NCBI GenBank assembly: GCA_965222115.1
Contig: CBDCTJ010000007.1
Coordinates: 2,464,001 to 2,528,000, forward strand
Direction: 5' to 3'
DNA: 64,000 nt
Origin: Planctomycetota bacterium
GTDB taxonomy: Bacteria; Planctomycetota; PLA2; JAEUHO01
Each line of letters starts with the position of its first letter. The first letter of the stretch is position 1. Made by a program: the position numbers and the translations under genes. Under the pieces are notes generated by a model, which was not told where the DNA came from, searched no databases, and worked only from the letters and a program-made list of their open reading frames with translations. Below, piece after piece: positions 2,437 to 29,276 of the stretch.

Positions 2437-2859
2437 TCAACAGTGCAAGACGATCGACGCGAGCCGTTCAAGGTCGGTTTGGCAGCGAGAGTCAAAGCTG
2501 TCGCGCGTGGTACGCGCCGCGAGACGTGAGCCATCCAGCGCGCTCAAAGCGGCAGGCCGTTGACCAAAGAAGAATGCGTACACGCTGCTGCCGGTGAGTT
2601 CGGCTCGTACAACGGAACACGTAATGAGGCCGTCGGTAGGTTTGTCGGTACCCAGTTTGGCACTGGCCATCGCCAGCGCCGCATTGACATTCGTAATTGC
2701 CGAGGCTTCGCGCGCGCTGCTTTCACCATCATCGTTTGCTTGTGCCGGTGATAAGCCAAAGCACACGGGGCTCACGAGTGACAACATGAGGATGGAAACG
2801 AGTCCCATGCGACGCAACCATGTCTCGCGATTCGACATACGTGGTTCGGTAGTTCGCAT
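2437..2859 (-). CDS. Small secreted hypothetical protein between yajC and secDF (candidate secretion-monitor uORF)
   Basis: Signal peptide (RRMGLVSILMLSLVSPVCFGLSPAQA). ATG lies 2 nt after the yajC stop; alternative start at 2838. Confidence 0.6.
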   Translation of the reverse strand: MRTTEPRMSNRETWLRRMGLVSILMLSLVSPVCFGLSPAQANDDGESSAREASAITNVNAALAMASAKLGTDKPTDGLITCSVVRAELTGSSVYAFFFGQRPAALSALDGSRLAARTTRDSFDSRCQTDLERLASIVLHC

Positions 2860-18206: not shown

Positions 18207-19646
18207 GTGTCGATGTACACAAAGAACGCCGAGTTCAAGGCCGGGGTCGTGGTCCTGCTTGCCATTCTTGGGTTCTTGGCCTTCCTGTACTTCGCCGGTG
18301 GATCCGAGAGCCCGTGGCGCGACTACCGCTATGTGCAGTTGCGCTTTCAACCGGGTTTCCTCGCACCCCGTCCTGGCGATCCCGTTCAAATGAATGGCGT
18401 TACGGTGGGGCGCGTTCACCATGTGAAGCAGCGGGAAGAGGTCCGTCGCAATGAGCAGTTGACGGTTGCCGATCGACGCAAGTTGGGCTTGAGGGCGGAT
18501 GAGCCGGGCGAAGTGCGCGAAATGTATGTGCTGGCGACCGTAAAGATGCCCGCCGATCAGGTAATACCGCAGGGCTCGGCGGCACTGATCGATCAGAACA
18601 TTGCGGGTGTGCGTCAACTGTCCCTTTTGCCGGGTGCCTCCACGGAAAACCTCACCGACGAACAGACCGCGTCGTCGCCGCTTCCGGCCAGCGAAGCGCC
18701 AGGCATCAAAGACGTCACCACCAATCTCAATGAACTGGTTGGCAAGTTGGACACGTTGGTGGTGAGTGCCGACGAAGTGTTGGTGGAGGCGCGCGACCTC
18801 ATCGCGACCGTGCAGGAAAAGGTGGACGCGCTCGACACCGCCACAGTCAACGATGAAGTGAAGGTCATCGCCAAGGCGGTGCGCGAAGCCATTGAGTCGT
18901 TGAAGGCTCGATTGGAGAGAATCGGTGCCAACATCGAAGAGGCGTCCGTTGATGCCAAGGCGATGACCAAGTCGGGCGTCGAGACGGTGGACGCCATTCG
19001 CGATGGGTTGGACAAGAATCTCGCTTCCCTCGAAGGCGTTATCACTCGACTCGACAAGATTATTGCCAAGGCCGAACCGCAGGTCGATAGCTTTCTTGTG
19101 AGCATGAACAACATGTCGCGCGACATGGAATCGGCCGCTAAGAACTTCAAATCTTTGTCCACCGAGTTTGCTGGAATCGGGCCCGACGCGAGGCGCATAC
19201 TCAATGATCTCGGCGTCGAGTTTGACGATGTAGTCAATACGTTGGGTGACATGGCGCGCAATCTGCTCGACGCCTCCGAGGATTTACGCGCCCGGCCCTG
19301 GCTGCTCACCAATAAGCCCGATCCGGGCGAGATCGCGTTCGACAACTTGCGCGCGGCGTCTCGCAACTACATGAAGGCGATGGCCGGTGCGCAACGTGCC
19401 ATGGTCAAACTGAGTCAGTTGCTGGCGCGCCCCGATGTCCACGATCCGCGTGTGCGCGCCATGATTCACGCCGCCATGCAGAACTACCAGGCATCCCTGG
19501 AGAAGTACCGCCGCGACGAAGCGCGCTGGACTCGCCTTTTTGAGACGGCGCCCAAGGGCGAGGGTGCCCGTGTCCCCCCACGCAATCCGGCACGCAGTGC
19601 ACACCCCGGAAATGCAAACCCCGGGAATGGCCAGCCGGGACGTTGA
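18207..19646 (+). CDS. mlaD: MlaD/MCE family protein with long coiled coil
   Basis: N-terminal TM (EFKAGVVVLLA), GDPVQMNGVTVGRV MCE motif, helical tail with RARPWLL. Confidence 0.85.
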   Translation: MSMYTKNAEFKAGVVVLLAILGFLAFLYFAGGSESPWRDYRYVQLRFQPGFLAPRPGDPVQMNGVTVGRVHHVKQREEVRRNEQLTVADRRKLGLRADEPGEVREMYVLATVKMPADQVIPQGSAALIDQNIAGVRQLSLLPGASTENLTDEQTASSPLPASEAPGIKDVTTNLNELVGKLDTLVVSADEVLVEARDLIATVQEKVDALDTATVNDEVKVIAKAVREAIESLKARLERIGANIEEASVDAKAMTKSGVETVDAIRDGLDKNLASLEGVITRLDKIIAKAEPQVDSFLVSMNNMSRDMESAAKNFKSLSTEFAGIGPDARRILNDLGVEFDDVVNTLGDMARNLLDASEDLRARPWLLTNKPDPGEIAFDNLRAASRNYMKAMAGAQRAMVKLSQLLARPDVHDPRVRAMIHAAMQNYQASLEKYRRDEARWTRLFETAPKGEGARVPPRNPARSAHPGNANPGNGQPGR

Positions 19647-19825
19647 CTCGGATTCTCCCGAATCAGAACCATCGGACCCGAGACATCAGGACGCGGCATC
19701 GATGATCGATTCGGCCGTGGTATCGGCGAGACGATTGTTGTGCATCTCGTACGGGGTTCTATGCTCCCAAGCCGATGAACGCCCTCACGAGGGTGCATCG
19801 ATCCAACATCAACAAGGAGAGCGCA

Positions 19826-20758
19826 ATGCGCAAGGTAGGCATGATCGGCGGTGGCAATGTAGGTGCCACATGCGCGTATCAAATCGCATCCGCCGGAATG
19901 GCCGACGTGGCGATTTACGACATTTTGGAAGGCGTCCCCGCTGGCAAAGCGCTGGACATGTCGCAAGTTGGTCCGGTCTTCGGATTTGACGGCGCGATCA
20001 CCGGAAGCCACGACGTGTCCATCATTGAGGGCTCCGAAGTTGTGGTGGTAACGGCAGGCTTTCCTCGCAAGGCCGGCATGGATCGTATGGACCTCCTGCG
20101 AAAAAACGTCGCGATTGCGCGCGCGAGCGGTGAAGCACTCAAGAAGTACGCACCCAACGCTGTGGTGATCGTGGTCACCAATCCACTTGATGTCATGACG
20201 TGGGTCATTCAGCAGTCCAGCGGTTTTCCGGCCGAGCGTGTCATCGGCATGGCGGGCGTGCTCGATTCTTCCCGATTCTCAACATTCATTCGCATGGAAC
20301 TTGGCGTGACGCCTAAGGATGTGAAAGCGATGGTGCTTGGTGGGCACGGCGACAGCATGGTTCCGCTTCCGCGGTTTAGTACCGTGAACGGTGTTCCGAT
20401 CACCGAACTCATGTCGGCCGAGCGCATTGAGGCGCTTAGCGACCGCACGCGTAAGGGCGGCGCCGAGATCGTGAAGCTACTTGGTACGGGAAGTGCGTTT
20501 TATGCGCCTGGTGCCAGCGCGGCCATCATGGCCGAGGCCGTACTCAATGACAGCAAGCGCTTGCTTCCCTGCAGTTGTTGGCTCAGCGGTCAGTACGGCA
20601 TCAACGACGTCTACCTCGGCGTGCCTGCCAAGCTCGGCAAGGGCGGCGTCGAGGAGATCATCGAACTCGACCTTCGTGACGACGAACTGAAGGCGCTCAA
20701 AGCATCGGCGGCAACAGTGGCCAAGGGCATTTCCGACGTTCAATCGTTGGATGCGTAG
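19826..20758 (+). CDS. mdh: LDH-like malate dehydrogenase
   Basis: IGGGNVG, TAGFPRKAGMDRMDL, VTNPLD, GGHGD; AGGAG RBS. Confidence 0.95.
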   Translation: MRKVGMIGGGNVGATCAYQIASAGMADVAIYDILEGVPAGKALDMSQVGPVFGFDGAITGSHDVSIIEGSEVVVVTAGFPRKAGMDRMDLLRKNVAIARASGEALKKYAPNAVVIVVTNPLDVMTWVIQQSSGFPAERVIGMAGVLDSSRFSTFIRMELGVTPKDVKAMVLGGHGDSMVPLPRFSTVNGVPITELMSAERIEALSDRTRKGGAEIVKLLGTGSAFYAPGASAAIMAEAVLNDSKRLLPCSCWLSGQYGINDVYLGVPAKLGKGGVEEIIELDLRDDELKALKASAATVAKGISDVQSLDA

Positions 20759-20774
20759 CGAGAGTTTCTGAATC

Positions 20775-21800
20775 ATGATTCGTGCCGTCATTCTCGGTGG
20801 GACCGGCTATGGCGGCATGGAACTGCTGCGCTACTTGCTGGGTCACGCAGACGTGGAGGTTGTGGCGCTCACGAGCCGAACCGACGAGCGTCCGGTCGGT
20901 GAGCGCTACCCACATTTGCGTGGGCTGACGGATCTTCACTTTACGAAGGAATCCGAAGGCGCACTTGAGACGTTGGCGGACGCATGCGACGTCGTGTTTT
21001 CGGCCAAGCCACACGGCGTTGGTTGCCATGAATTGCCGGCGCTCTTAGCCGCAGCACCCGAAGTGCGCGTGATCGACCTCTCAGGCGACTTTCGACTTCG
21101 AGACGCGGCGCTGTATCCAACGTGGTACGACTACGAGCATCCGTACCCCGCATGGTTGAGCAAGTCGGTGTATGGCCTCGCCGAGTGTGGACTGCGCGAC
21201 GCGATTTCGCGCGCGCGACTGGTCGCCAATCCCGGGTGCCACGCAAGCGCAACGGTGTTGGCGCTTTGGCCCGCGGTGGACGCCGGGCTGGTGAAGGGGC
21301 GCGTATCGGTTGTGAGTGTGACAGGATCGTCCGGTTCGGGGAGTTCCCCCAAAGCGGGCACGCACCATCCCGAGCGGTTTTCCAACTTTAAGGCGTATCG
21401 TCCGCTCAAACATCAACACCTGCCCGAAGTCGTTCAAGCGTTGGGTGGCGATACTCCCGTTGACTTCGTTCCCCACTCGGCGCCGGTTGCGCGGGGCATA
21501 CATGTGACGGCCTTTTTGCCGGTGGACAACGCGAATCTAGAGACCGTCATGTCGGCGTACGACGACCGCTACGCCGAGGAACCGTTCATGCGTTTACGTG
21601 AAGGCACGGTTGAGTTGCGCGCCTCCATGGGTACAAACTTCGTGGACATTGGCGTTACCGTGGCAGATGGCATTGCGGTGATTGCACTCGCGCAGGACAA
21701 TCTCGGCAAGGGGATGGCCGGTTCAGCCGTGCAAAATATGAACATTATGTTCGGCCTTCCTGAAATGAGCGGCCTGGATCGCGGAGGACCTGGACTTTGA
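20775..21800 (+). CDS. argC: N-acyl-gamma-glutamyl-phosphate reductase
   Basis: GGTGYGG, IDLSGDFR, ANPGC, DNLGKGMAG.AVQNMN. Confidence 0.92.
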   Translation: MIRAVILGGTGYGGMELLRYLLGHADVEVVALTSRTDERPVGERYPHLRGLTDLHFTKESEGALETLADACDVVFSAKPHGVGCHELPALLAAAPEVRVIDLSGDFRLRDAALYPTWYDYEHPYPAWLSKSVYGLAECGLRDAISRARLVANPGCHASATVLALWPAVDAGLVKGRVSVVSVTGSSGSGSSPKAGTHHPERFSNFKAYRPLKHQHLPEVVQALGGDTPVDFVPHSAPVARGIHVTAFLPVDNANLETVMSAYDDRYAEEPFMRLREGTVELRASMGTNFVDIGVTVADGIAVIALAQDNLGKGMAGSAVQNMNIMFGLPEMSGLDRGGPGL

Positions 21801-23059
21801 CCGCGAAGACCAATGAACCGTTGAATCCAAACGAGTCTCTGGATCCAAGAGGGGCGCGCCAACAGTTGGAAGGCGCCATTGGCGCCCTTCCACAAGAAAC
21901 GCCGGCCGTCACCGCCTTGGAAGATCGCTATCAAATAAAGACCTACGCCAAGTGGGGCTTGGCGCTTGCCGCAGGCAAAGGTGCGTGGGTGGAAGACGTC
22001 ACAGGGCGACGATTCCTGGACTTGTACGGCGGGCACTGCGTGGCCCTCGTGGGGCATTGCCATCCCACCCTTGTTACCGCGGTGCAGGCCCAGTGCGAGC
22101 GGTTGATGTTTTATAGCAATGCGGTCTACAGCGATGTGCGCGCGGTTGCAGTGGAGCGACTCTGCCAGTTGGCACCGGAACCACTGCAGTCGGTGTTTCT
22201 TTGCAACTCAGGTGCCGAAGCCAATGAGACCGCCCTCAAGATGGCGCGTAAGTTTACGGGGCGCCGCAACGTCGTTTCCATGAACGAGAGCTTCCATGGA
22301 CGCACGCTCGGGTGCCTTGGCGCTACCGGAATTGCCAAGTATCGCGATGCCGCGTACCCGATTCCGACCGAACATCGCTACATACCGCACGGCGACATGG
22401 ACGCGGCCAAAGCGGCGGTGGGCAACGACACGGCGGCAGTCATACTCGAACCGATTCCCTCCATGGGTGGCATTCAGTGCGCGCCCGATGGCTACCTGCC
22501 GGCCCTTCGTGCGCATTGCGATGCCGTCGGCGCGCTGCTGATCTTCGATGAAGTGCAAACGGGCTTTGGGCGCACCGGAACGATATTCTTTGGCGAACAC
22601 GAGCACGTCGTGCCGGATCTGATTACGGGCGCCAAAGGACTTGCCGGTGGATTCCCGGCGGGCGTTACGTTTGTGCACGAACGCATCGCTCGCACAGTGA
22701 AGAACGGCGACCAGGGAACGACATTTGGTGGGGGCCCGCTTGCGAGTGCCGCGATCGCGGCTACCGCCACTTTGATTCGCACGTTGGATCTACCCAAGAA
22801 TGCCGCACACGTTGGCAAACTCCTGTCCCGCGAGCTCAGCGCACTTGAGGGCGTTCAAGCCGTAACGGGTCGCGGTCTTCTGATCGGCATCGATTTGAAT
22901 CGGCCGGCCAAGGCCATCGCGTCGGCTCTCTTCGATGCGGGCATTCTTGTTGGCACGGCGGGAGGGCGTCTCAACCAACTGCGTCTCTTGCCTCCACTGA
23001 CCCTGACAGAAGGCGAAGCCTCAATGTTGATTCCCGCACTTCGTGACGCCTTGGCGTAG
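21797..23059 (+). CDS. argD: Acyl-ornithine aminotransferase (class III)
   Basis: CNSGAEANE, SFHGRT, IFDEVQTGFGRTG, AKGLAGG, TTFGGGPL. Confidence 0.9.
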   Translation: MTAKTNEPLNPNESLDPRGARQQLEGAIGALPQETPAVTALEDRYQIKTYAKWGLALAAGKGAWVEDVTGRRFLDLYGGHCVALVGHCHPTLVTAVQAQCERLMFYSNAVYSDVRAVAVERLCQLAPEPLQSVFLCNSGAEANETALKMARKFTGRRNVVSMNESFHGRTLGCLGATGIAKYRDAAYPIPTEHRYIPHGDMDAAKAAVGNDTAAVILEPIPSMGGIQCAPDGYLPALRAHCDAVGALLIFDEVQTGFGRTGTIFFGEHEHVVPDLITGAKGLAGGFPAGVTFVHERIARTVKNGDQGTTFGGGPLASAAIAATATLIRTLDLPKNAAHVGKLLSRELSALEGVQAVTGRGLLIGIDLNRPAKAIASALFDAGILVGTAGGRLNQLRLLPPLTLTEGEASMLIPALRDALA

Positions 23060-23068
23060 AGTTTCGCC

Positions 23069-23107
23069 ATGAGCTACCGTGCACACCGACGACGACACAG
23101 GCGCTAA
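23069..23107 (+). CDS. Arg-rich leader peptide MSYRAHRRRHRR
   Basis: ATG AGC TAC CGT GCA CAC CGA CGA CGA CAC AGG CGC TAA in the argD-argF' gap; 6 of 12 codons are Arg. Confidence 0.75.
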   Translation: MSYRAHRRRHRR

Positions 23108-23151
23108 GCCACTATTTTTTTCCGTCCTGTCGTCGAATCTCCTTTGGTGTG
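23082..23151 (+). promoter_or_regulatory. Attenuator-like hairpin pairing leader Arg codons with the argF' initiation region
   Basis: CACACCGA(23082-89) pairs with TTGGTGTG(23144-51); CGACGACA(23090-97) pairs with TGTCGTCG(23128-35); T7 tract at 23115-21. Confidence 0.65.
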
Positions 23152-23155
23152 AATC

Positions 23156-24199
23156 ATGAAGCCCGCTCCTGCCACGCTCCGGCACGTCCTAAACCTCTAT
23201 GATATGGATTCAGCGCGCTGGAATCGCCTACTTGATCTCTCTGAGTGCATGGCGGGTCCACTGGGTCGCGTCCATCACTTGCGCGGTAAACGTGTAGCGA
23301 TGGTCTTTTTCAATGCGTCGCTACGAACGCGGACCGCACTGGAAGTTGCGTGCTTTGATTTAGGCGCGCACGCCATCAATCTCAACGTGGGCGGTGGTTT
23401 GTGGAGCCTCGAGCATCGCGATGACGTCGAGATGGATGGGCCGCACGCGGAGCATGTGCGTGAAGGTTTTGGTGTGCTTGGTTGCATGACGGATGCCGTG
23501 GGCGTGCGCGTGTTCGCCTCGTTGACGGATGCCACGGAAGACGTGCGCGATCCCGCACTGAATGCCATTGCAGGCGCGTCCCCGGTACCCGTGCTCAATC
23601 TCGAGTCGGCCATGACCCATCCGCATCAGGGCTTGGCGGATGCGCTTACGGTGCGTCGCCGCTATCCCGGTGAACGTGTTCGTATCGCTCTCACGTGGGC
23701 ACCTCACATCAAGCCACTCCCACTCGCTGTGGCTCAGTCTGCGCTCATGGCATTTGCTCGTGAAGGTCACGAGGTGGTAGTGGCTCATCCCAAAGGCTAT
23801 GACCTCGCATCGAGCGCTGTGGAACACGCCAAGCGAATTGCAATGTCGTCGGGCGGAAGTGTGGCGGTTACGCATCAGCAAGACGAAGCATTGAACGGTG
23901 CGCGCGTGGTCTATGCCAAGAGTTGGGGGTCGCCGCAGTTCTACGGCGACGTGGACGCTTCGAAGGCTTCGTTGAGATCGCACGCCGATTGGAAGGTGAA
24001 TCGTTCCAAGATAGCACGGGGCCAAGATGCGGTATTCATGCACTGTCTACCCGTTCGCCGTGGCGTCGTTGTGGATGCCGATGTGCTCGATAGCGAAGCG
24101 AGTGTTGTTTTGGCGCAAGCCGAAGCACGTTTGCATGTTCAGAAAGCAACCCTCATGGACATCTTTGGTGTGGACGTGGGTCGAGGCCAAACGATATGA
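23156..24199 (+). CDS. argF: N-acetyl/N-succinyl-ornithine carbamoyltransferase (ArgF')
   Basis: FFNASLRTR, HPHQGLAD, TWAPHIKPLP Pro-rich loop and HCLPVRR, typical of AOTCase/SOTCase. Confidence 0.88.
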   Translation: MKPAPATLRHVLNLYDMDSARWNRLLDLSECMAGPLGRVHHLRGKRVAMVFFNASLRTRTALEVACFDLGAHAINLNVGGGLWSLEHRDDVEMDGPHAEHVREGFGVLGCMTDAVGVRVFASLTDATEDVRDPALNAIAGASPVPVLNLESAMTHPHQGLADALTVRRRYPGERVRIALTWAPHIKPLPLAVAQSALMAFAREGHEVVVAHPKGYDLASSAVEHAKRIAMSSGGSVAVTHQQDEALNGARVVYAKSWGSPQFYGDVDASKASLRSHADWKVNRSKIARGQDAVFMHCLPVRRGVVVDADVLDSEASVVLAQAEARLHVQKATLMDIFGVDVGRGQTI

Positions 24200-25116
24200 A
24201 AGACATTGGTATTCTTCGCGAAGCGCTGCCTTACTTGCGCCGCCACCGACGTCAGACCGTCGTTGTCAAGCTCGGCGGTGAAATAGCGGCCAATCCGCAA
24301 GCCTTGGACATGTTGGCCAAGAGCATTTCGTTGCTCACGCATGTCAACATTCGCATCATTACCGTGCATGGCGGTGGTCCGCAGGCCACCAAGCTTTCGG
24401 AGAAGCTCGGGCTCGAAACCAAGATGGTGCAGGGGCGTCGAATCACGGACGCAGCCACACTCGAGGTAGCCAAGATGGCATTTGCGGGGCAGATCAATGT
24501 GGACATTCTCGGTGCCCTGCGCGTTGCTGGCGTGCGCGCCGTGGGCCTGTCGGGGATCGACGCCGACATACTCATGGCCAGGCGCCGTCCACCTTCCGAG
24601 GTGCAAGACGTGGCTACGGGGCGTAAGGAGATTGTGGACTTTGGGCACGTGGGCGACATTGTGGAGGTGAACACCGAGTTGCTTTCCCTGTTGGTGGAGC
24701 ACGGCTATGTCCCGGTGATTTCGTCGCTGGGTTGTGATGACGATGGCAACGCGCTGAACGTAAACGCCGATACCGTTGCAATGGAGATCGCGCGGGACCT
24801 GCGAGCAAGCAAGCTGATTTCGCTTACAGGCGTCCCTGGGCTCCTGAAAGACAAAGACGATCCCACCAGCGTGATTTCACGATTGAGTCTGAGTGAGGCA
24901 CGCACGGCGCTCAGCGATGGAACGATCCAAGGCGGAATGATTCCCAAGGTGAAGACACTGATTGACGCCGTTGAAGGCGGCGTTCGCGCTGGCATCATAT
25001 TGTCGGGCCTCGATCACGACGCGCTCCTCGCCGAACTGTTTACGGACCGTGGTGTGGGCACGTTGATCGAGCGAGATGTTGATGAGAAGTCCGCGAGCCT
25101 CGGAGCCCCCGCGTGA
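24196..25116 (+). CDS. argB: Acylglutamate kinase
   Basis: VVKLGG, VHGGGPQ, GRRITD, NVNADT, GGMIPKV. Confidence 0.93.
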   Translation: MKDIGILREALPYLRRHRRQTVVVKLGGEIAANPQALDMLAKSISLLTHVNIRIITVHGGGPQATKLSEKLGLETKMVQGRRITDAATLEVAKMAFAGQINVDILGALRVAGVRAVGLSGIDADILMARRRPPSEVQDVATGRKEIVDFGHVGDIVEVNTELLSLLVEHGYVPVISSLGCDDDGNALNVNADTVAMEIARDLRASKLISLTGVPGLLKDKDDPTSVISRLSLSEARTALSDGTIQGGMIPKVKTLIDAVEGGVRAGIILSGLDHDALLAELFTDRGVGTLIERDVDEKSASLGAPA

Positions 25117-26183
25117 AGAACGTGACGGAACTACTTCAGGCGATCGTACGCATTCCCTCCGTTTCTGGGGAAGAGCACGCGTGCCGCGACTTTCTCGTTG
25201 ACTGGCTAAAAGACCAGGGCGTCAAGGCGTGGTCGTCGGGGCGTAATGTCTTGGCGACCGTGGAGGGCAAGCCATCCGCCCGTGATCGTGGCCTTCTATT
25301 GCTTACCCACATCGACGTGGTTCCTGTGGGGGATGGGTGGACACGAGATCCATGGGATGGCGCGCTTGAGGACGGATTCGTGTTCGGTCGTGGTTCCAAC
25401 GACGCCAAGTCAAGCGCTGCGTCGATGGCGTGGGTCGCGGCTCATGTCGACCCGGCACACATTGAGGGCCGCTTGGTTGTTGCGCTGGTTTGCGATGAGG
25501 AAACGGGCGGCGAAGGCATTGAAGTGTGTCGCGACGAGTTGCCTGCGTTCCAAGCGAGTGTGGTGGGGGAACCTACGGAACTCGATGTATGTCCGGGGCA
25601 ACGTGGTTTGTTTCGCGCAACGATTGTTGAACGCGGCAAACAGTGTCATGCAAGTCGGCCTTGGGAGGGCGCCAACGCAATTGACATGGCTGCTCGCGAT
25701 ATTGCCGCCATACACGAAATGGACTTGGGTGCCGCCGACGATCTGTTGGGTCCGGCAACGCTTCAAGTGACGGTGATCCAAGGTGGTACGCGACCCAATG
25801 TGTTGCCGGGAGAATGCACATTGGAACTCGACGGTCGCCCGTCGCCCACGTTTGACAATCAGGCGATGGAGCGTGCATTGAACGAAATCGCGAAGGGTGA
25901 CGTGACCATTCGCAGCAATCGCTTTTTTCCGGTGCGTACGGCCAATGATGAGGAAATCGTTCGTATTGCTGTTGAGTCAAGTCCCACGGGTAACGTCCGT
26001 GGGTTCGGCGGCGTGTCGGATCTCTTTCATGTGAGCCATCATCCCGGTGTCGTCATGGGCCCCGGCACCAGTGCGGCGAGTCATGCTGCCGATGAGTCGG
26101 TCGCCGTAGAACAGCTCGATAAGGCTGTCGTCGCATACGAAAGCATCGTTCGTGCATACTTGGCCCCGGGAGGGCGCGCATAG
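25113..26183 (+). CDS. argE: M20 deacylase (ArgE-like)
   Basis: THIDVVP, GRGSNDAK, DEE, GEPT, HAADE; lies within the arg operon. Confidence 0.8.
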   Translation: MKNVTELLQAIVRIPSVSGEEHACRDFLVDWLKDQGVKAWSSGRNVLATVEGKPSARDRGLLLLTHIDVVPVGDGWTRDPWDGALEDGFVFGRGSNDAKSSAASMAWVAAHVDPAHIEGRLVVALVCDEETGGEGIEVCRDELPAFQASVVGEPTELDVCPGQRGLFRATIVERGKQCHASRPWEGANAIDMAARDIAAIHEMDLGAADDLLGPATLQVTVIQGGTRPNVLPGECTLELDGRPSPTFDNQAMERALNEIAKGDVTIRSNRFFPVRTANDEEIVRIAVESSPTGNVRGFGGVSDLFHVSHHPGVVMGPGTSAASHAADESVAVEQLDKAVVAYESIVRAYLAPGGRA

Positions 26184-27610
26184 TGGCTGTCGAGCGATCA
26201 AAGAAACGATCAAAGAAACGATCGACGAAGAAGGGCGATCCCTTGCGAGGACGGTTTTCTGAACACACGGCCGAGGCGCTCGATCGCATCAATCGGTCCT
26301 ACCCCATCGATCGTCGCCTCTGGCGCGAAGACATTGAGGGCTCGCTCGCTCATGCGCGCATGCTGGGTGCAAAGGGCATTTTGAGTCAGGCATCGGTGAA
26401 ACGCATCGTGAAAGGCCTCCTAACGATTCACGGGGAGTTTGAAGCCCGTACGTTCAAGGCGTGTGCAACCGACGAGGACATTCACATGGCCGTCGAACGT
26501 CGCCTCGTCGAGTTGATTGGCGACGACGGTGCACGTCTCCATACGGGTCGCAGCCGCAACGATCAAGTGGCGACGGATTTGGAATTGTACTGCGCGCGGG
26601 CTGCCAAGCGTATTCAGGACGGGATTCGCGACGTGCAGGCGGCATTGGTTTCCGCCGCGACGGACGTGGATGACGCACTGGTGCCGTTCTATACCCATAT
26701 GCAACGTGCCCAGCCCATCGTCATGGCTCACGTGTTGCTTGCCTACGTAGAAATGCTTCAGCGTGATACGGACGCGTGTGCGTATGACCTCAATGCGTGC
26801 CCACTCGGGTCCGGCGCCGGGGCGGGCACAACCTATCCAATCGACCGCGCCATGACCGCCAAAGCGCTCGGTTTCCGTGGACCGTCTCGCAACAGTCTTG
26901 TTGGCGTGTCGTCGCGGCAAAATCTTGCCCGGCTACTATCAGGCTTTGCCGCGACCGCTACGACGCTGTCGCGCCTGGGTGGCGACATCATTTTATGGAC
27001 GACGCGCGAGTTCGGTTTTGCTCGTCTTGGTGACGATGTGTCAACGGGCTCAAGCATCATGCCGCAAAAGCGCAATCCCGATGGCGCGGAGCTTCTGCGA
27101 GGCAAGGCATCGCGAGTGATTGGCGCACTTCAGCGCGTGTTTGAGATTCAACGCGGGTTGCCGATGGGGTACTTCAAAGATCTCCAAGAAGACAAAGCGG
27201 CGCTCTTTGATGCTGAAGACACATTGCTCGACATGTTGGCCGTGGCATCCGCGATGATGCGCAGCATCGACTTTGATCGAGTGCGCATGGAGGCCGCGGT
27301 AGCGGAACCATCGGGGTATCTCATGGCGACGGAAGCCGCGGACTACCTTGTGTCTCGCGGTGTGTCCTTTCGCGAAGCCCATGAAGCGGTTGGCGCCCTC
27401 GTTCGTCTGGCCGAGACTCGGGACGTAGGGCTGGAAGCGCTCGACATCGACGACTTTAGGCGGCTGCATAGGAAGTTTGATGACGAGGTATTCACGGTAT
27501 TGGATCCCTTGACCGCCGTTAGACGTCGTCGAGCGATTGGGGGACCCTCCCCAGCCAACGTGCGTCGCGAACTTGCTCGTTGGCGCAAACGAATTGCCTC
27601 CTCCCACTAA
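26183..27610 (+). CDS. argH: Argininosuccinate lyase
   Basis: EDIHMAVE, HTGRSRNDQ, TGSSIMPQKRNPD, KDLQEDK. Confidence 0.96.
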   Translation: MAVERSKKRSKKRSTKKGDPLRGRFSEHTAEALDRINRSYPIDRRLWREDIEGSLAHARMLGAKGILSQASVKRIVKGLLTIHGEFEARTFKACATDEDIHMAVERRLVELIGDDGARLHTGRSRNDQVATDLELYCARAAKRIQDGIRDVQAALVSAATDVDDALVPFYTHMQRAQPIVMAHVLLAYVEMLQRDTDACAYDLNACPLGSGAGAGTTYPIDRAMTAKALGFRGPSRNSLVGVSSRQNLARLLSGFAATATTLSRLGGDIILWTTREFGFARLGDDVSTGSSIMPQKRNPDGAELLRGKASRVIGALQRVFEIQRGLPMGYFKDLQEDKAALFDAEDTLLDMLAVASAMMRSIDFDRVRMEAAVAEPSGYLMATEAADYLVSRGVSFREAHEAVGALVRLAETRDVGLEALDIDDFRRLHRKFDDEVFTVLDPLTAVRRRRAIGGPSPANVRRELARWRKRIASSH

Positions 27611-27731
27611 GCAGGGCCCTTGGACTCATCGACGCGCAATCGATAGGTCCTCGACGCGGACTCGACAATGACGGAGACGCCCTTCACCTCGTGCATCTTG
27701 GCGTACACTGGGGACTGGAGACGACGTCCCG

Positions 27732-29276
27732 ATGCGATCCACACAATCCTCATCCCCTGCCATTCGTAGCGGGCGCCTCTTGCTGGTGTCGCTTCAGGTG
27801 GTTTTGGCGGCAACCCTCGCTGCCTGCGGTGGCGGAGGTGGTGGGAGCGCAGATGTCATCACCTTCTACTTGGCCGACACCACGCCTCGTGATGGCCACG
27901 TCAATGTACCGACCAATCAGATCATTAGTTTGGTCTTCAACAAAGACGTTGATCCGCTGACGGTTACTCCCTCGTCACTGTCTATCGTTGCCAACGATGC
28001 CGGGGCGATTCAGGGAACGCTAACGCAGTCACAGACTCGGCCCCGAGAACTGCGGTGGGTGCCGTCCGAACTCATGGTGGCAGGGGAACGTCACTTTTGC
28101 ACCGTGTCGAGCGGGTTACGTTCCGTCGATGGCGAGGCGCTTTCCGGTGCCACGCAGTTTGAGTTCCATACCATTGGCGGTTCGACCGGCCCCCCGATCC
28201 CCGATCCAACGCGGCTTCGGCGAACCATTGGATCGATGAACGAAGGCCGGCAGTCACACCGCGCCACGCTACTAACTGATGGCCGCGTTTTGGTTACGGG
28301 TGGTTTCGATAGCGGATCGCACGCAACCGATACGGCCGAGTTGTATCTGCCGTTCAACGACACGTTTATCAATACGTCCAACGAGATGCTGACTGAACGC
28401 GCGAGCCATGCATCCGTACGACTTGCAAATGGACATGTGCTCATTTGCGGTGGATTCCGTCAGCAGAGTGGAAGTACGTTGACCGCCCTGGCGACGGCCG
28501 AGGTATACAATCCTGCGTCCAACACGTTTGCGCCGGTGGGCGACATGGCGGTGGAACGCGCCAACCACACGGCAACACTGTTGGACGATGGGCGCGTGCT
28601 GATCGCCGGCGGAAGCACCTACGTGTCGGGCTCGTTGACCGACCACATTACTGCCGAGATCTACGATCCCGGAACGTCAACATTTGCGCTCTTATCCGAA
28701 GACATGCTGCACACACGCAGCAGCCATGTGGCGCTGAAACGATCCGACGGTGACGTTGCACTCTTTGGCGGAAGCCAAGGCGACCTGCGCGTGGGTGTCT
28801 TTGATCCCACCACCGATTCGTTTACCAGCTTGGGAATTCCACCATCGGCGTCGGCACAGTTTGGTGCCGCGGCAGCCCTGTTCCCGAGCGGCGGTATTTC
28901 CGTTGCAGGTGGCAGCGTGCGCGGCGATGTCTTTCATTTGCGTGACGGTGAGACCTTTGTCTTCAATACCGGTAGCCCGCTGTGGCGTGCACGCTCGTAT
29001 GCGACGTCCAGTGTGATTGCACCCGACACGCTCATGGTTGTGGGTGGCATCGACTTTTCACGCGGTGGTTTGATTGAGTCGTCGGTAGATATCATTGTTG
29101 AAGGCGGCGTTGGCGGTAGTCGCACCTACGCCACGAGTATGCGTTTCCCAACAGGCATGGCGGCACATACGGCGACGAAACTGGCGAATGGTGATGTGCT
29201 TTTCTGTGGCGGACTCGATCCAGCGGGCGTGGCAAGTTACAACGCCGCATATATTTACGAAGTGCCAACCGAGTAG
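27732..29276 (+). CDS. Lipoprotein with Ig-like (Big_5-type) domain and kelch repeats
   Basis: Lipobox LAAC; repeated HxATLLxDGRVLxxGG...AExYxP kelch units. Confidence 0.88.
   Translation: MRSTQSSSPAIRSGRLLLVSLQVVLAATLAACGGGGGGSADVITFYLADTTPRDGHVNVPTNQIISLVFNKDVDPLTVTPSSLSIVANDAGAIQGTLTQSQTRPRELRWVPSELMVAGERHFCTVSSGLRSVDGEALSGATQFEFHTIGGSTGPPIPDPTRLRRTIGSMNEGRQSHRATLLTDGRVLVTGGFDSGSHATDTAELYLPFNDTFINTSNEMLTERASHASVRLANGHVLICGGFRQQSGSTLTALATAEVYNPASNTFAPVGDMAVERANHTATLLDDGRVLIAGGSTYVSGSLTDHITAEIYDPGTSTFALLSEDMLHTRSSHVALKRSDGDVALFGGSQGDLRVGVFDPTTDSFTSLGIPPSASAQFGAAAALFPSGGISVAGGSVRGDVFHLRDGETFVFNTGSPLWRARSYATSSVIAPDTLMVVGGIDFSRGGLIESSVDIIVEGGVGGSRTYATSMRFPTGMAAHTATKLANGDVLFCGGLDPAGVASYNAAYIYEVPTE

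Follow-up and report, generated by a model that had tools for sequence, protein, structure and literature searches.

A candidate leaderless, arginine-codon-rich short reading frame as a possible translational attenuator upstream of argF' in a planctomycete

The argD-argF' gap and its short reading frame

The window analysed here, a stretch of 64,000 nucleotides (nt) from the genome of a Planctomycetota bacterium (GenBank assembly GCA_965222115.1, contig CBDCTJ010000007.1, positions 2,464,001 to 2,528,000 of the forward strand), carries a cluster of arginine biosynthesis genes, and all coordinates given below are those of the window. Our subject is the gap between argD and argF', the latter encoding N-acetylornithine carbamoyltransferase. 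It extends over 96 nt (23060-23155), from the argD stop codon TAG (23057-59) to the argF' ATG (23156), and is the sole sizeable spacer of the arg cluster. Within it lies a short open reading frame (ORF), MSYRAHRRRHRR, with the codons ATG AGC TAC CGT GCA CAC CGA CGA CGA CAC AGG CGC TAA (23069-23107). Arginine (Arg) is specified by six of the 12 codons, namely CGT, CGA, CGA, CGA, AGG and CGC at positions 4, 7, 8, 9, 11 and 12. The features of the gap on which the argument turns are these.

23051-23068, + strand: promoter-like element TTGGCG-TAGAGT-TTCGCC, from the genome-wide spacing of TANNNT hexamers and from box homology
23069-23107, + strand: short ORF MSYRAHRRRHRR with its TAA stop codon, the proposed sensor
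23078-23097, + strand: 5' arm of a hairpin, made up of ORF codons 4-10, from both folds (minimum free energy and centroid)
23115-23121, + strand: run of seven T in a pyrimidine-rich loop, from sequence and fold
23128-23158, + strand: 3' arm of the hairpin (23128-35, 23144-51 and 23155-58), a candidate sequestered translation-initiation region, from the folds

Re-reading the gap confirmed what an earlier interpretation of this DNA, the sequence-only reading, had claimed for it: the gap encodes an Arg-rich peptide, six residues in 12, with CGA-CGA-CGA and AGG among its codons. The short ORF is in frame with argF', with two stop codons in between, and on a read-through mRNA its ATG would stand 9 nt past the argD stop. 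The gap sequence is single-copy in the genome, and a repeat or mobile element was thus rejected. Across 22985-23582, a second sample (X3) yielded a contig (record 14) with zero differences, and the gap is without variants; because of this identity, the sequence is not an assembly artefact.

The genes around the gap were assigned as follows.

19775-20758: mdh, the first gene of the cluster
20775-21800, + strand: argC (NCBIfam TIGR01850, 322 bits)
21797-23059, + strand: argD, from the ORF list; the top argD-family models score 353-357 bits, under their own cut-offs
23156-24199, + strand: argF', N-acetylornithine carbamoyltransferase (NCBIfam NF003384, 354.8 bits, cut-off 288)
24196-25116, + strand: argB (NCBIfam)
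25113-26183, + strand: ArgE/DapE-family deacylase, argE (NCBIfam)
26183-27610, + strand: argH (NCBIfam)

All the genes that lie 3' of the short ORF (argF', argB, the ArgE/DapE-family deacylase gene and argH) belong to arginine metabolism, matching the amino acid that would be sensed, and by the ORF coordinates each neighbouring pair shares 1-4 nt. Three runs show, over the 80 nt at 22529-22609 inside argD, a 20- to 60-fold rise in metagenome contig depth together with many loose ends; the likeliest cause is a conserved aminotransferase motif common to many other organisms of the samples, and not a feature of the genome.

An Arg-rich mini-ORF is not by itself very surprising in this genome. A strict Arg filter is passed by 110 of 32216 ATG mini-ORFs genome-wide, and on a home-made map of 3374 genes, which underlies the intergenic counts, 116 of 5039 intergenic ATG mini-ORFs hold at least four Arg codons with a run of three. 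In 478 kilobases of sense-strand upstream sequence there are 17 Arg-run mini-ORFs with any start codon. The one in the window is the only one of these found before an arginine gene, the genes behind the other 16 having been searched with Pfam and NCBIfam; one in 17 corresponds to a roughly 3-5% event. A small GNAT gene behind the frame MRVSRRRIS was considered as an N-acetylglutamate synthase and rejected, with 30 bits against a cut-off of 280.

Pairing of the short reading frame with the argF' start

Codons 4-10 of the short ORF pair with the start region of argF' in the minimum-free-energy fold and in the centroid fold alike. Both contain the two pairings named in the sequence-only reading, 23082-89 with 23144-51 and 23090-97 with 23128-35, and the T run that it had put in the loop was located at 23115-23121. 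Both folds also join 23078-81 to 23155-58, a pairing beyond those named earlier, and since 23155-58 is CAUG, it takes in the argF' start codon. The 3' segment 23144-51 includes the GGTG at 23146-49, and the three CGA codons in a row pair with GUCGUCG. CGA makes up 16% of the Arg codons of the genome, and a series of three is thus unusual. The stretch 23108-23143 is rich in C and U and poor in G.

The pairing was compared with several null models. In a synonymous-recoding null, in which the peptide was kept and codons were drawn from genome usage in 1000 variants, the recoded leaders fold at -22.6 ± 3.7 kcal/mol against -33.9 kcal/mol for the native leader, and a single variant attains the native energy. 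The probability that 23144-58 is paired with the ORF is 0.78 in the native sequence and 0.32 on average in the recodings, of which again 1 in 1000 attains the native value. When the ORF was swapped for random intergenic 36-mers, native pairing was attained in 1% of 600 replacements, and shuffling the order of its codons attained it in none of 400 cases. By these nulls, pairing of the ORF with the start region reaches significance at roughly 1% or better.

We modelled the ribosome as a 28-nt mask and measured how open it leaves the argF' start region, from -14 to +5, by the unpaired probability averaged over these positions. RNA free of ribosomes gives 0.35. An A site on codon 4 raises this to 0.57, one on codons 7-9 to 0.53-0.56, one on codon 11 to 0.52 and one on codon 12 to 0.44; a ribosome at the stop codon gives 0.36. 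In the model, then, stalls on Arg codons expose the argF' start and ordinary termination does not; the sequence-only reading had proposed such a comparison of folds with and without masked Arg codons.

The tRNA-Arg genes that ARAGORN found in the genome have the anticodons ACG, CCG, CCT and TCT, and none has TCG. Given this set, five of the six Arg codons of the short ORF depend on a single ACG gene, and CGA is readable solely through inosine wobble of the ACG (ICG) isoacceptor. Decoding of CGA through inosine wobble is slow. The same program reported a tRNA-His with the odd anticodon ATG next to two GTG copies, as well as a tRNA-Sec, in the genome.

Probable leaderless starts and the box upstream of argF'

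Counted over 2263 upstream regions of the genome, the hexamer TANNNT ends 6 nt before the start codon 106 times, at 7, 8 and 9 nt it does so 49, 29 and 25 times, and at other spacings 6-12 times (about 9). A G stands directly before the hexamer in 103 of 192 cases. In the same 2263 regions no information is found upstream of position -2, and no -35 signal is visible. For GGAG and AGGA the maximum is 6-8 nt before starts (232 against about 24). The TANNNT peak at 6 nt, together with the GGAG/AGGA peak, suggests large-scale use of leaderless mRNAs by this planctomycete, beside Shine-Dalgarno-led ones.

The short ORF has this same arrangement. Its -10-like hexamer TAGAGT (23057-62), preceded by G at 23056 (GTAGAGT, 23056-62), leaves 6 nt to the ATG, and the first half of the box is the argD stop TAG (23057-59) itself; G-TAGAGT-TTCGCC-ATG is the modal leaderless configuration of the genome. 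Among intergenic sense-strand ATG mini-ORFs, TANNNT-N6-ATG occurs in 9 of 3238 and GTANNNT-N6-ATG in 2 of 2856. A second Arg-run mini-ORF that matches TANNNT-N6, MGRRRLTGGTTRA, was set aside, as it lies before a TPR/NsdA-like gene and not before an arginine gene. Elsewhere in the cluster, mdh has the arrangement TATGCT-N9-ATG (19761-19777), with its box 9 nt before the ATG.

For conservation we searched 40 relatives, a 29-genome family, metagenome contigs and species-representative genomes. The collection contains no second species of the genome's genus; the top argF' identity is 64% in genomes (the 29-genome family) and 62% in metagenome contigs, and the nearest argF' loci in named genome records all belong to metagenome-assembled genomes of Planctomycetota. 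Adjacency of argD and argF' is conserved. In most loci at the family and order level the two genes overlap by 4 nt or are less than 20 nt apart; in about ten of the family loci the gap is larger, or argD is not the gene directly upstream.

A single GTANNNT lies in the 110 nt before argF' in 10 of 25 family loci, those with a gap of at least 49 nt or with no argD directly upstream, and by eye two further loci (L008 and L030) also carry the box. It is absent from the 12 family loci with overlapping or closely spaced argD and argF' (up to about 20 nt apart), and L018 lacks it despite a gap of 139 nt. The box lies 37-39 nt upstream of argF' in the two closest relatives. In L007, L009 and L013 it lies 8-9 nt from the argF' start, and argF' looks leaderless there. 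An alignment of the window with its relatives (A1) contains a common CGC..GTAnnGTT(T)CGC before argF', and the window box appears to be homologous to the argF' box of the relatives. Where the family gaps have it, the conserved box is probably an internal promoter, leaderless in some members. The gaps of L002, L021, L012, L020, L022, L006, L007 and L016 carry it as GCG(C)GTATCGT(T)CG or GGTAAGGT, 8-39 nt before argF'; 17 nt of it are identical between two genera, each with an argF' only about 64% identical to that of the window.

Given leaderless-start spacing behind a box homologous to the argF' box of relatives, the short ORF is most likely the leaderless, 5'-terminal ORF of a transcript from an internal promoter, starting at or next to A23069. 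The simplest history would be a conserved internal argF' promoter that is followed here by a 12-codon ORF, with argF' coming only 87 nt later. The sequence-only reading had placed an attenuator inside the operon. It does lie inside the arg cluster, and the leaderless-start spacing and the box indicate that the ORF is probably not merely an internal frame on a read-through mRNA. A consensus scan of the gap found no sigma-70-type promoter, but the scan demands a -35 element, which the leaderless promoters of the genome lack. A weaker alternative -10 candidate is TATTTT at 23113-18, a poor fit to the hexamer preferences of the genome; this second TANNNT stands 37 nt before argF', like the box in the two closest relatives.

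The argG gene lies elsewhere in the genome (L215, G000:C7), with a GTAAGAT box of its own about 60 nt upstream and a GAGGAG Shine-Dalgarno sequence. Upstream of it (L215, about 2704-2770, minus strand) runs an Arg-rich frame, MRRAARAHSWFRCARRSSIDT, with 6 Arg in 21 codons, which starts in the box, overlaps the TTG start region of argG and ends just inside the gene; to judge from its position, this frame is probably off the transcript.

A possible arginine-sensing attenuator and its alternatives

Searches for ArgR, a T-box and a terminator gave no candidates. The ArgR domains PF02863 and PF01316 have no match in the genome itself, which is 90% complete, and match 8 and 9 of 14 control genomes; ArgJ was not found in the genome either. 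For T-boxes and other Rfam families, the region 19000-28000 yielded only a chance microRNA match at an E of 5 or below. No terminator-like site was found in 23060-23155, where the T run lies in the loop and not after a stem, and the terminator design of a classical transcription attenuator was accordingly not found in the gap.

The reading that we infer from the observed sequence, pairing, statistics and genomic context would add to them a transcription start, translation of the ORF, stalling and a response to arginine. An internal promoter with the -10 box TAGAGT (23057-62), overlapping the argD stop, would begin its transcript at or next to the A of the ORF's ATG (23069), and a 70S ribosome would translate from this ATG without a leader. 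With plentiful Arg-tRNA the ribosome would pass the six Arg codons and reach the TAA, after which codons 4-10 (23078-97) would pair with 23128-58, bury the weak, Shine-Dalgarno-poor argF' start with its AUG and leave argF' poorly translated; argB, argE and argH would probably follow argF' by translational coupling, as their genes overlap. When charged tRNA-Arg is scarce, the ribosome would stall on CGU, on CGA-CGA-CGA or on AGG, the main tRNA concerned being the single ACG (ICG) isoacceptor, which reads CGA by wobble. The stalled ribosome would cover the 5' arm, the 3' arm would remain single-stranded, and argF' would be translated. We put the probability of such a translational attenuator, with a leaderless short ORF that senses arginine as its mycobacterial polycysteine counterparts sense cysteine, at about 0.47. 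The promoter and leaderless context, as read from the sequence, is a strong new argument for it.

Short ORFs rich in codons for the amino acid of a pathway sense charged tRNA through ribosome position in trpL, hisL, leuL, thrL, pheL and ilvL, and these classical attenuators act through alternative antiterminator and terminator hairpins with a U-run. The argF' gap differs from them in having no terminator-like site and no match to an Rfam leader family. For ermCL/ermC and cat, an antibiotic acts as the trigger together with the nascent peptide inside the exit tunnel, and the leaders have Shine-Dalgarno sites; the trigger proposed here is instead a shortage of charged tRNA. Common to those leaders, as summarised in 10.1101/834739, and to the mechanism proposed here is an arrested ribosome on a leader ORF that remodels a hairpin and frees the start of the next gene.

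By analogy, the proposed design matches the polycysteine attenuators of mycobacteria, which are built on leaderless short ORFs (Ms5788A class; Canestrari et al., bioRxiv 10.1101/834739) and are experimentally proven for cysteine. There, silent and compensatory mutants showed that a duplex sequesters the ribosome-binding site downstream and that ribosomes stalled in the cysteine (Cys) tract block this duplex, and the authors suggest that leaderless short ORFs arise easily where a transcription start becomes RUG. The short ORF of the window holds a run of consecutive Arg codons (CGA three times), that class demanding two or more. The likeness extends to a leaderless (here putative) short ORF that heads the transcript and has a codon run for the end-product amino acid, to codons that pair with the ribosome-binding region of the next gene, to relief of repression by a stalled ribosome (here proposed), and to translational control that needs no terminator, in a host rich in leaderless mRNAs. 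The two differ in amino acid (arginine, not cysteine) and in phylum (Planctomycetota, not Actinomycetota). The promoter lies here inside a gene cluster and overlaps the stop of the upstream gene, a single locus takes the place of a multi-locus 'ribulon', conservation in relatives is lacking, and the present case is a prediction from sequence.

In Staphylococcus aureus, rbfL (Kohl et al., Nat Commun 2026, PMC13009471) is a leader peptide that senses arginine limitation through Arg codons and affects translation initiation of the next gene. It has two rare AGA/AGG codons, the start site of rbf, a regulator of biofilms, is occluded by the paused ribosome, and its ORF is of the kind that is not leaderless. 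By comparison, the system proposed here would have the opposite sign, arginine synthesis as its target and a putatively leaderless ORF. A full-text literature search of open journals, main texts only, returned no arginine-biosynthesis operon under a leader-peptide attenuator, and our literature search on planctomycete leaderless transcription returned no relevant paper.

A number of observations weigh against the attenuator. The sequence-only reading had named a conserved Arg-rich mini-ORF upstream of argF' orthologues as a check, and none was found. The design occurs in none of 25 family loci and none of 155 wider argF' loci; among the latter no Arg-rich mini-ORF is adjacent to argF', and the three within 250 nt all end at least 109 nt upstream. 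No short ORF follows the box in the family loci with gaps, and the element is confined to one genome. As the closest argF' is 64% identical and the collections searched hold no closer relative, this missing conservation amounts to weak evidence against the attenuator and to no refutation. The gap of L021 (G001) contains an Arg-run mini-ORF, MISLTRPSLRSRRRR (CGA CGA CGA CGG), whose ATG overlaps the argD stop (ATGA). It was rejected as a second case: its position is upstream of the -10-like box of L021, and its pairing is local and does not involve the start region. It is either a coincidence or an independent, differently wired case. Within the genome, the lists of TANNNT-N6 and GTANNNT-N6 mini-ORFs contain no other amino-acid-biased leaderless short ORF before a matching pathway, and no comparable leaderless sensor ORF precedes argG.

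The same side of the balance receives points from the sequence itself. Under dinucleotide shuffling of the whole fragment the fold is modest (z = -1.75), with 11 of 200 shuffles folding equally well. All p-values are post hoc, they depend on the home-made gene map, and the candidate to which they apply was chosen out of a very large scan. CGACGACGAC, a triplet repeat of low complexity, could be a product of slippage, and a transcript from TATTTT could omit both the ORF and the 5' arm. The GGTG before the argF' ATG, to which the sequence-only reading had drawn attention, does pair with the Arg codons, but it is not enriched at Shine-Dalgarno distance in this genome; what the hairpin hides is a weak or Shine-Dalgarno-less, AU-rich start region plus the AUG, rather than a usual Shine-Dalgarno sequence. 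Taken as a whole, the earlier proposal that a stalled ribosome opens a hairpin hiding the argF' start draws support from the mask folding, from the codon and pairing nulls and from the lack of ArgR, T-box and terminator matches, and is weakened by the missing conservation.

Much of this could be accommodated if the conserved argF' promoter fires and simply leaves an extra 87 nt at the head of the transcript, its Arg codons and hairpin having no arginine-specific role. The ATG may then be translated, and the stem-loop may at most stabilise the 5' end or fix a constitutively low level of translation. Such an incidental leader is supported by the conservation of the box itself, which 10 of 25 family loci carry, none with a short ORF after it, by the chance frequency of Arg-run mini-ORFs in a genome of 59% guanine plus cytosine (116/5039 and 110/32216), by the simple-repeat nature of CGACGACGAC and by the uniqueness of the element to one genome. 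It needs three independent coincidences at a single site within an arginine operon, however, in the 6 of 12 Arg codons, in a pairing at about 1% or lower and in an opening specific to stalls. With a 5'-terminal ATG, in a genome that has many leaderless genes, ribosomes on the codons would affect the helix, whether selected or not. We regard the incidental leader as unlikely, though a serious competitor. A different alternative, with neither promoter nor translated ORF, would make the gap plain spacer sequence of a read-through mdh-argC-argD-argF' mRNA and put box, ORF and hairpin all down to chance; it seems improbable to us. It would be at ease with the negative sigma-70 consensus scan, the fragment z of -1.75 and the lack of conservation, but the scan requires a -35 element that leaderless promoters of this genome do without, GTANNNT-N6-ATG is found in just 2 of 2856 intergenic mini-ORFs, the box aligns with that of relatives at the orthologous place, and the pairing nulls speak against chance.

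The short ORF could also be a real sensor with another output, through Rho access to 23108-23143, through mRNA decay or through re-initiation at argF' after the ORF stop. The C/U-rich, G-poor composition of 23108-23143 and the lack of a usual Shine-Dalgarno sequence before argF' are consistent with this, and on a read-through mRNA the position of the ORF's ATG, 9 nt past the argD stop, would make coupling possible. The C/U-rich stretch is short, however, and the pairing of the Arg codons with the AUG region is more simply explained by unmasking, and we hold such an output to be about as improbable as the plain spacer, if not slightly more so.

One observation in a relative stands apart from these alternatives. 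In L007 (G009), a GTG frame of 28 codons, with 8 Arg including a run of three, fills the 95-nt gap and ends with GTGA on the argF' start; it may be due to chance in a sequence of roughly 70% guanine plus cytosine.

Returning to the arginine-sensing attenuator, we would advance its broader claim with slightly greater reserve than the mechanism itself, and still a little short of an even chance: this would be the first arginine-biosynthesis operon under a leaderless short-ORF translational attenuator, arisen de novo in one ArgR-less planctomycete lineage once some 87 nt had come to separate argF' from its conserved leaderless promoter. With its length of about 100 nt the locus is compact, and it gives clear predictions for start-codon, Arg-codon, silent and compensatory mutants. 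The finding that TANNNT lies 6 nt before starts is useful for annotating the lineage, as it covers about a hundred or more genes with no visible -35. Such ribosome-read sensors have so far been demonstrated only for cysteine in mycobacteria; if the attenuator is real, leaderless ones evolve independently in distant phyla rich in leaderless mRNAs, and for further amino acids. Should the reading hold, short-ORF translational attenuation would be a general solution, locally invented by bacteria rich in leaderless mRNAs, here for arginine in a planctomycete genome with no ArgR match.

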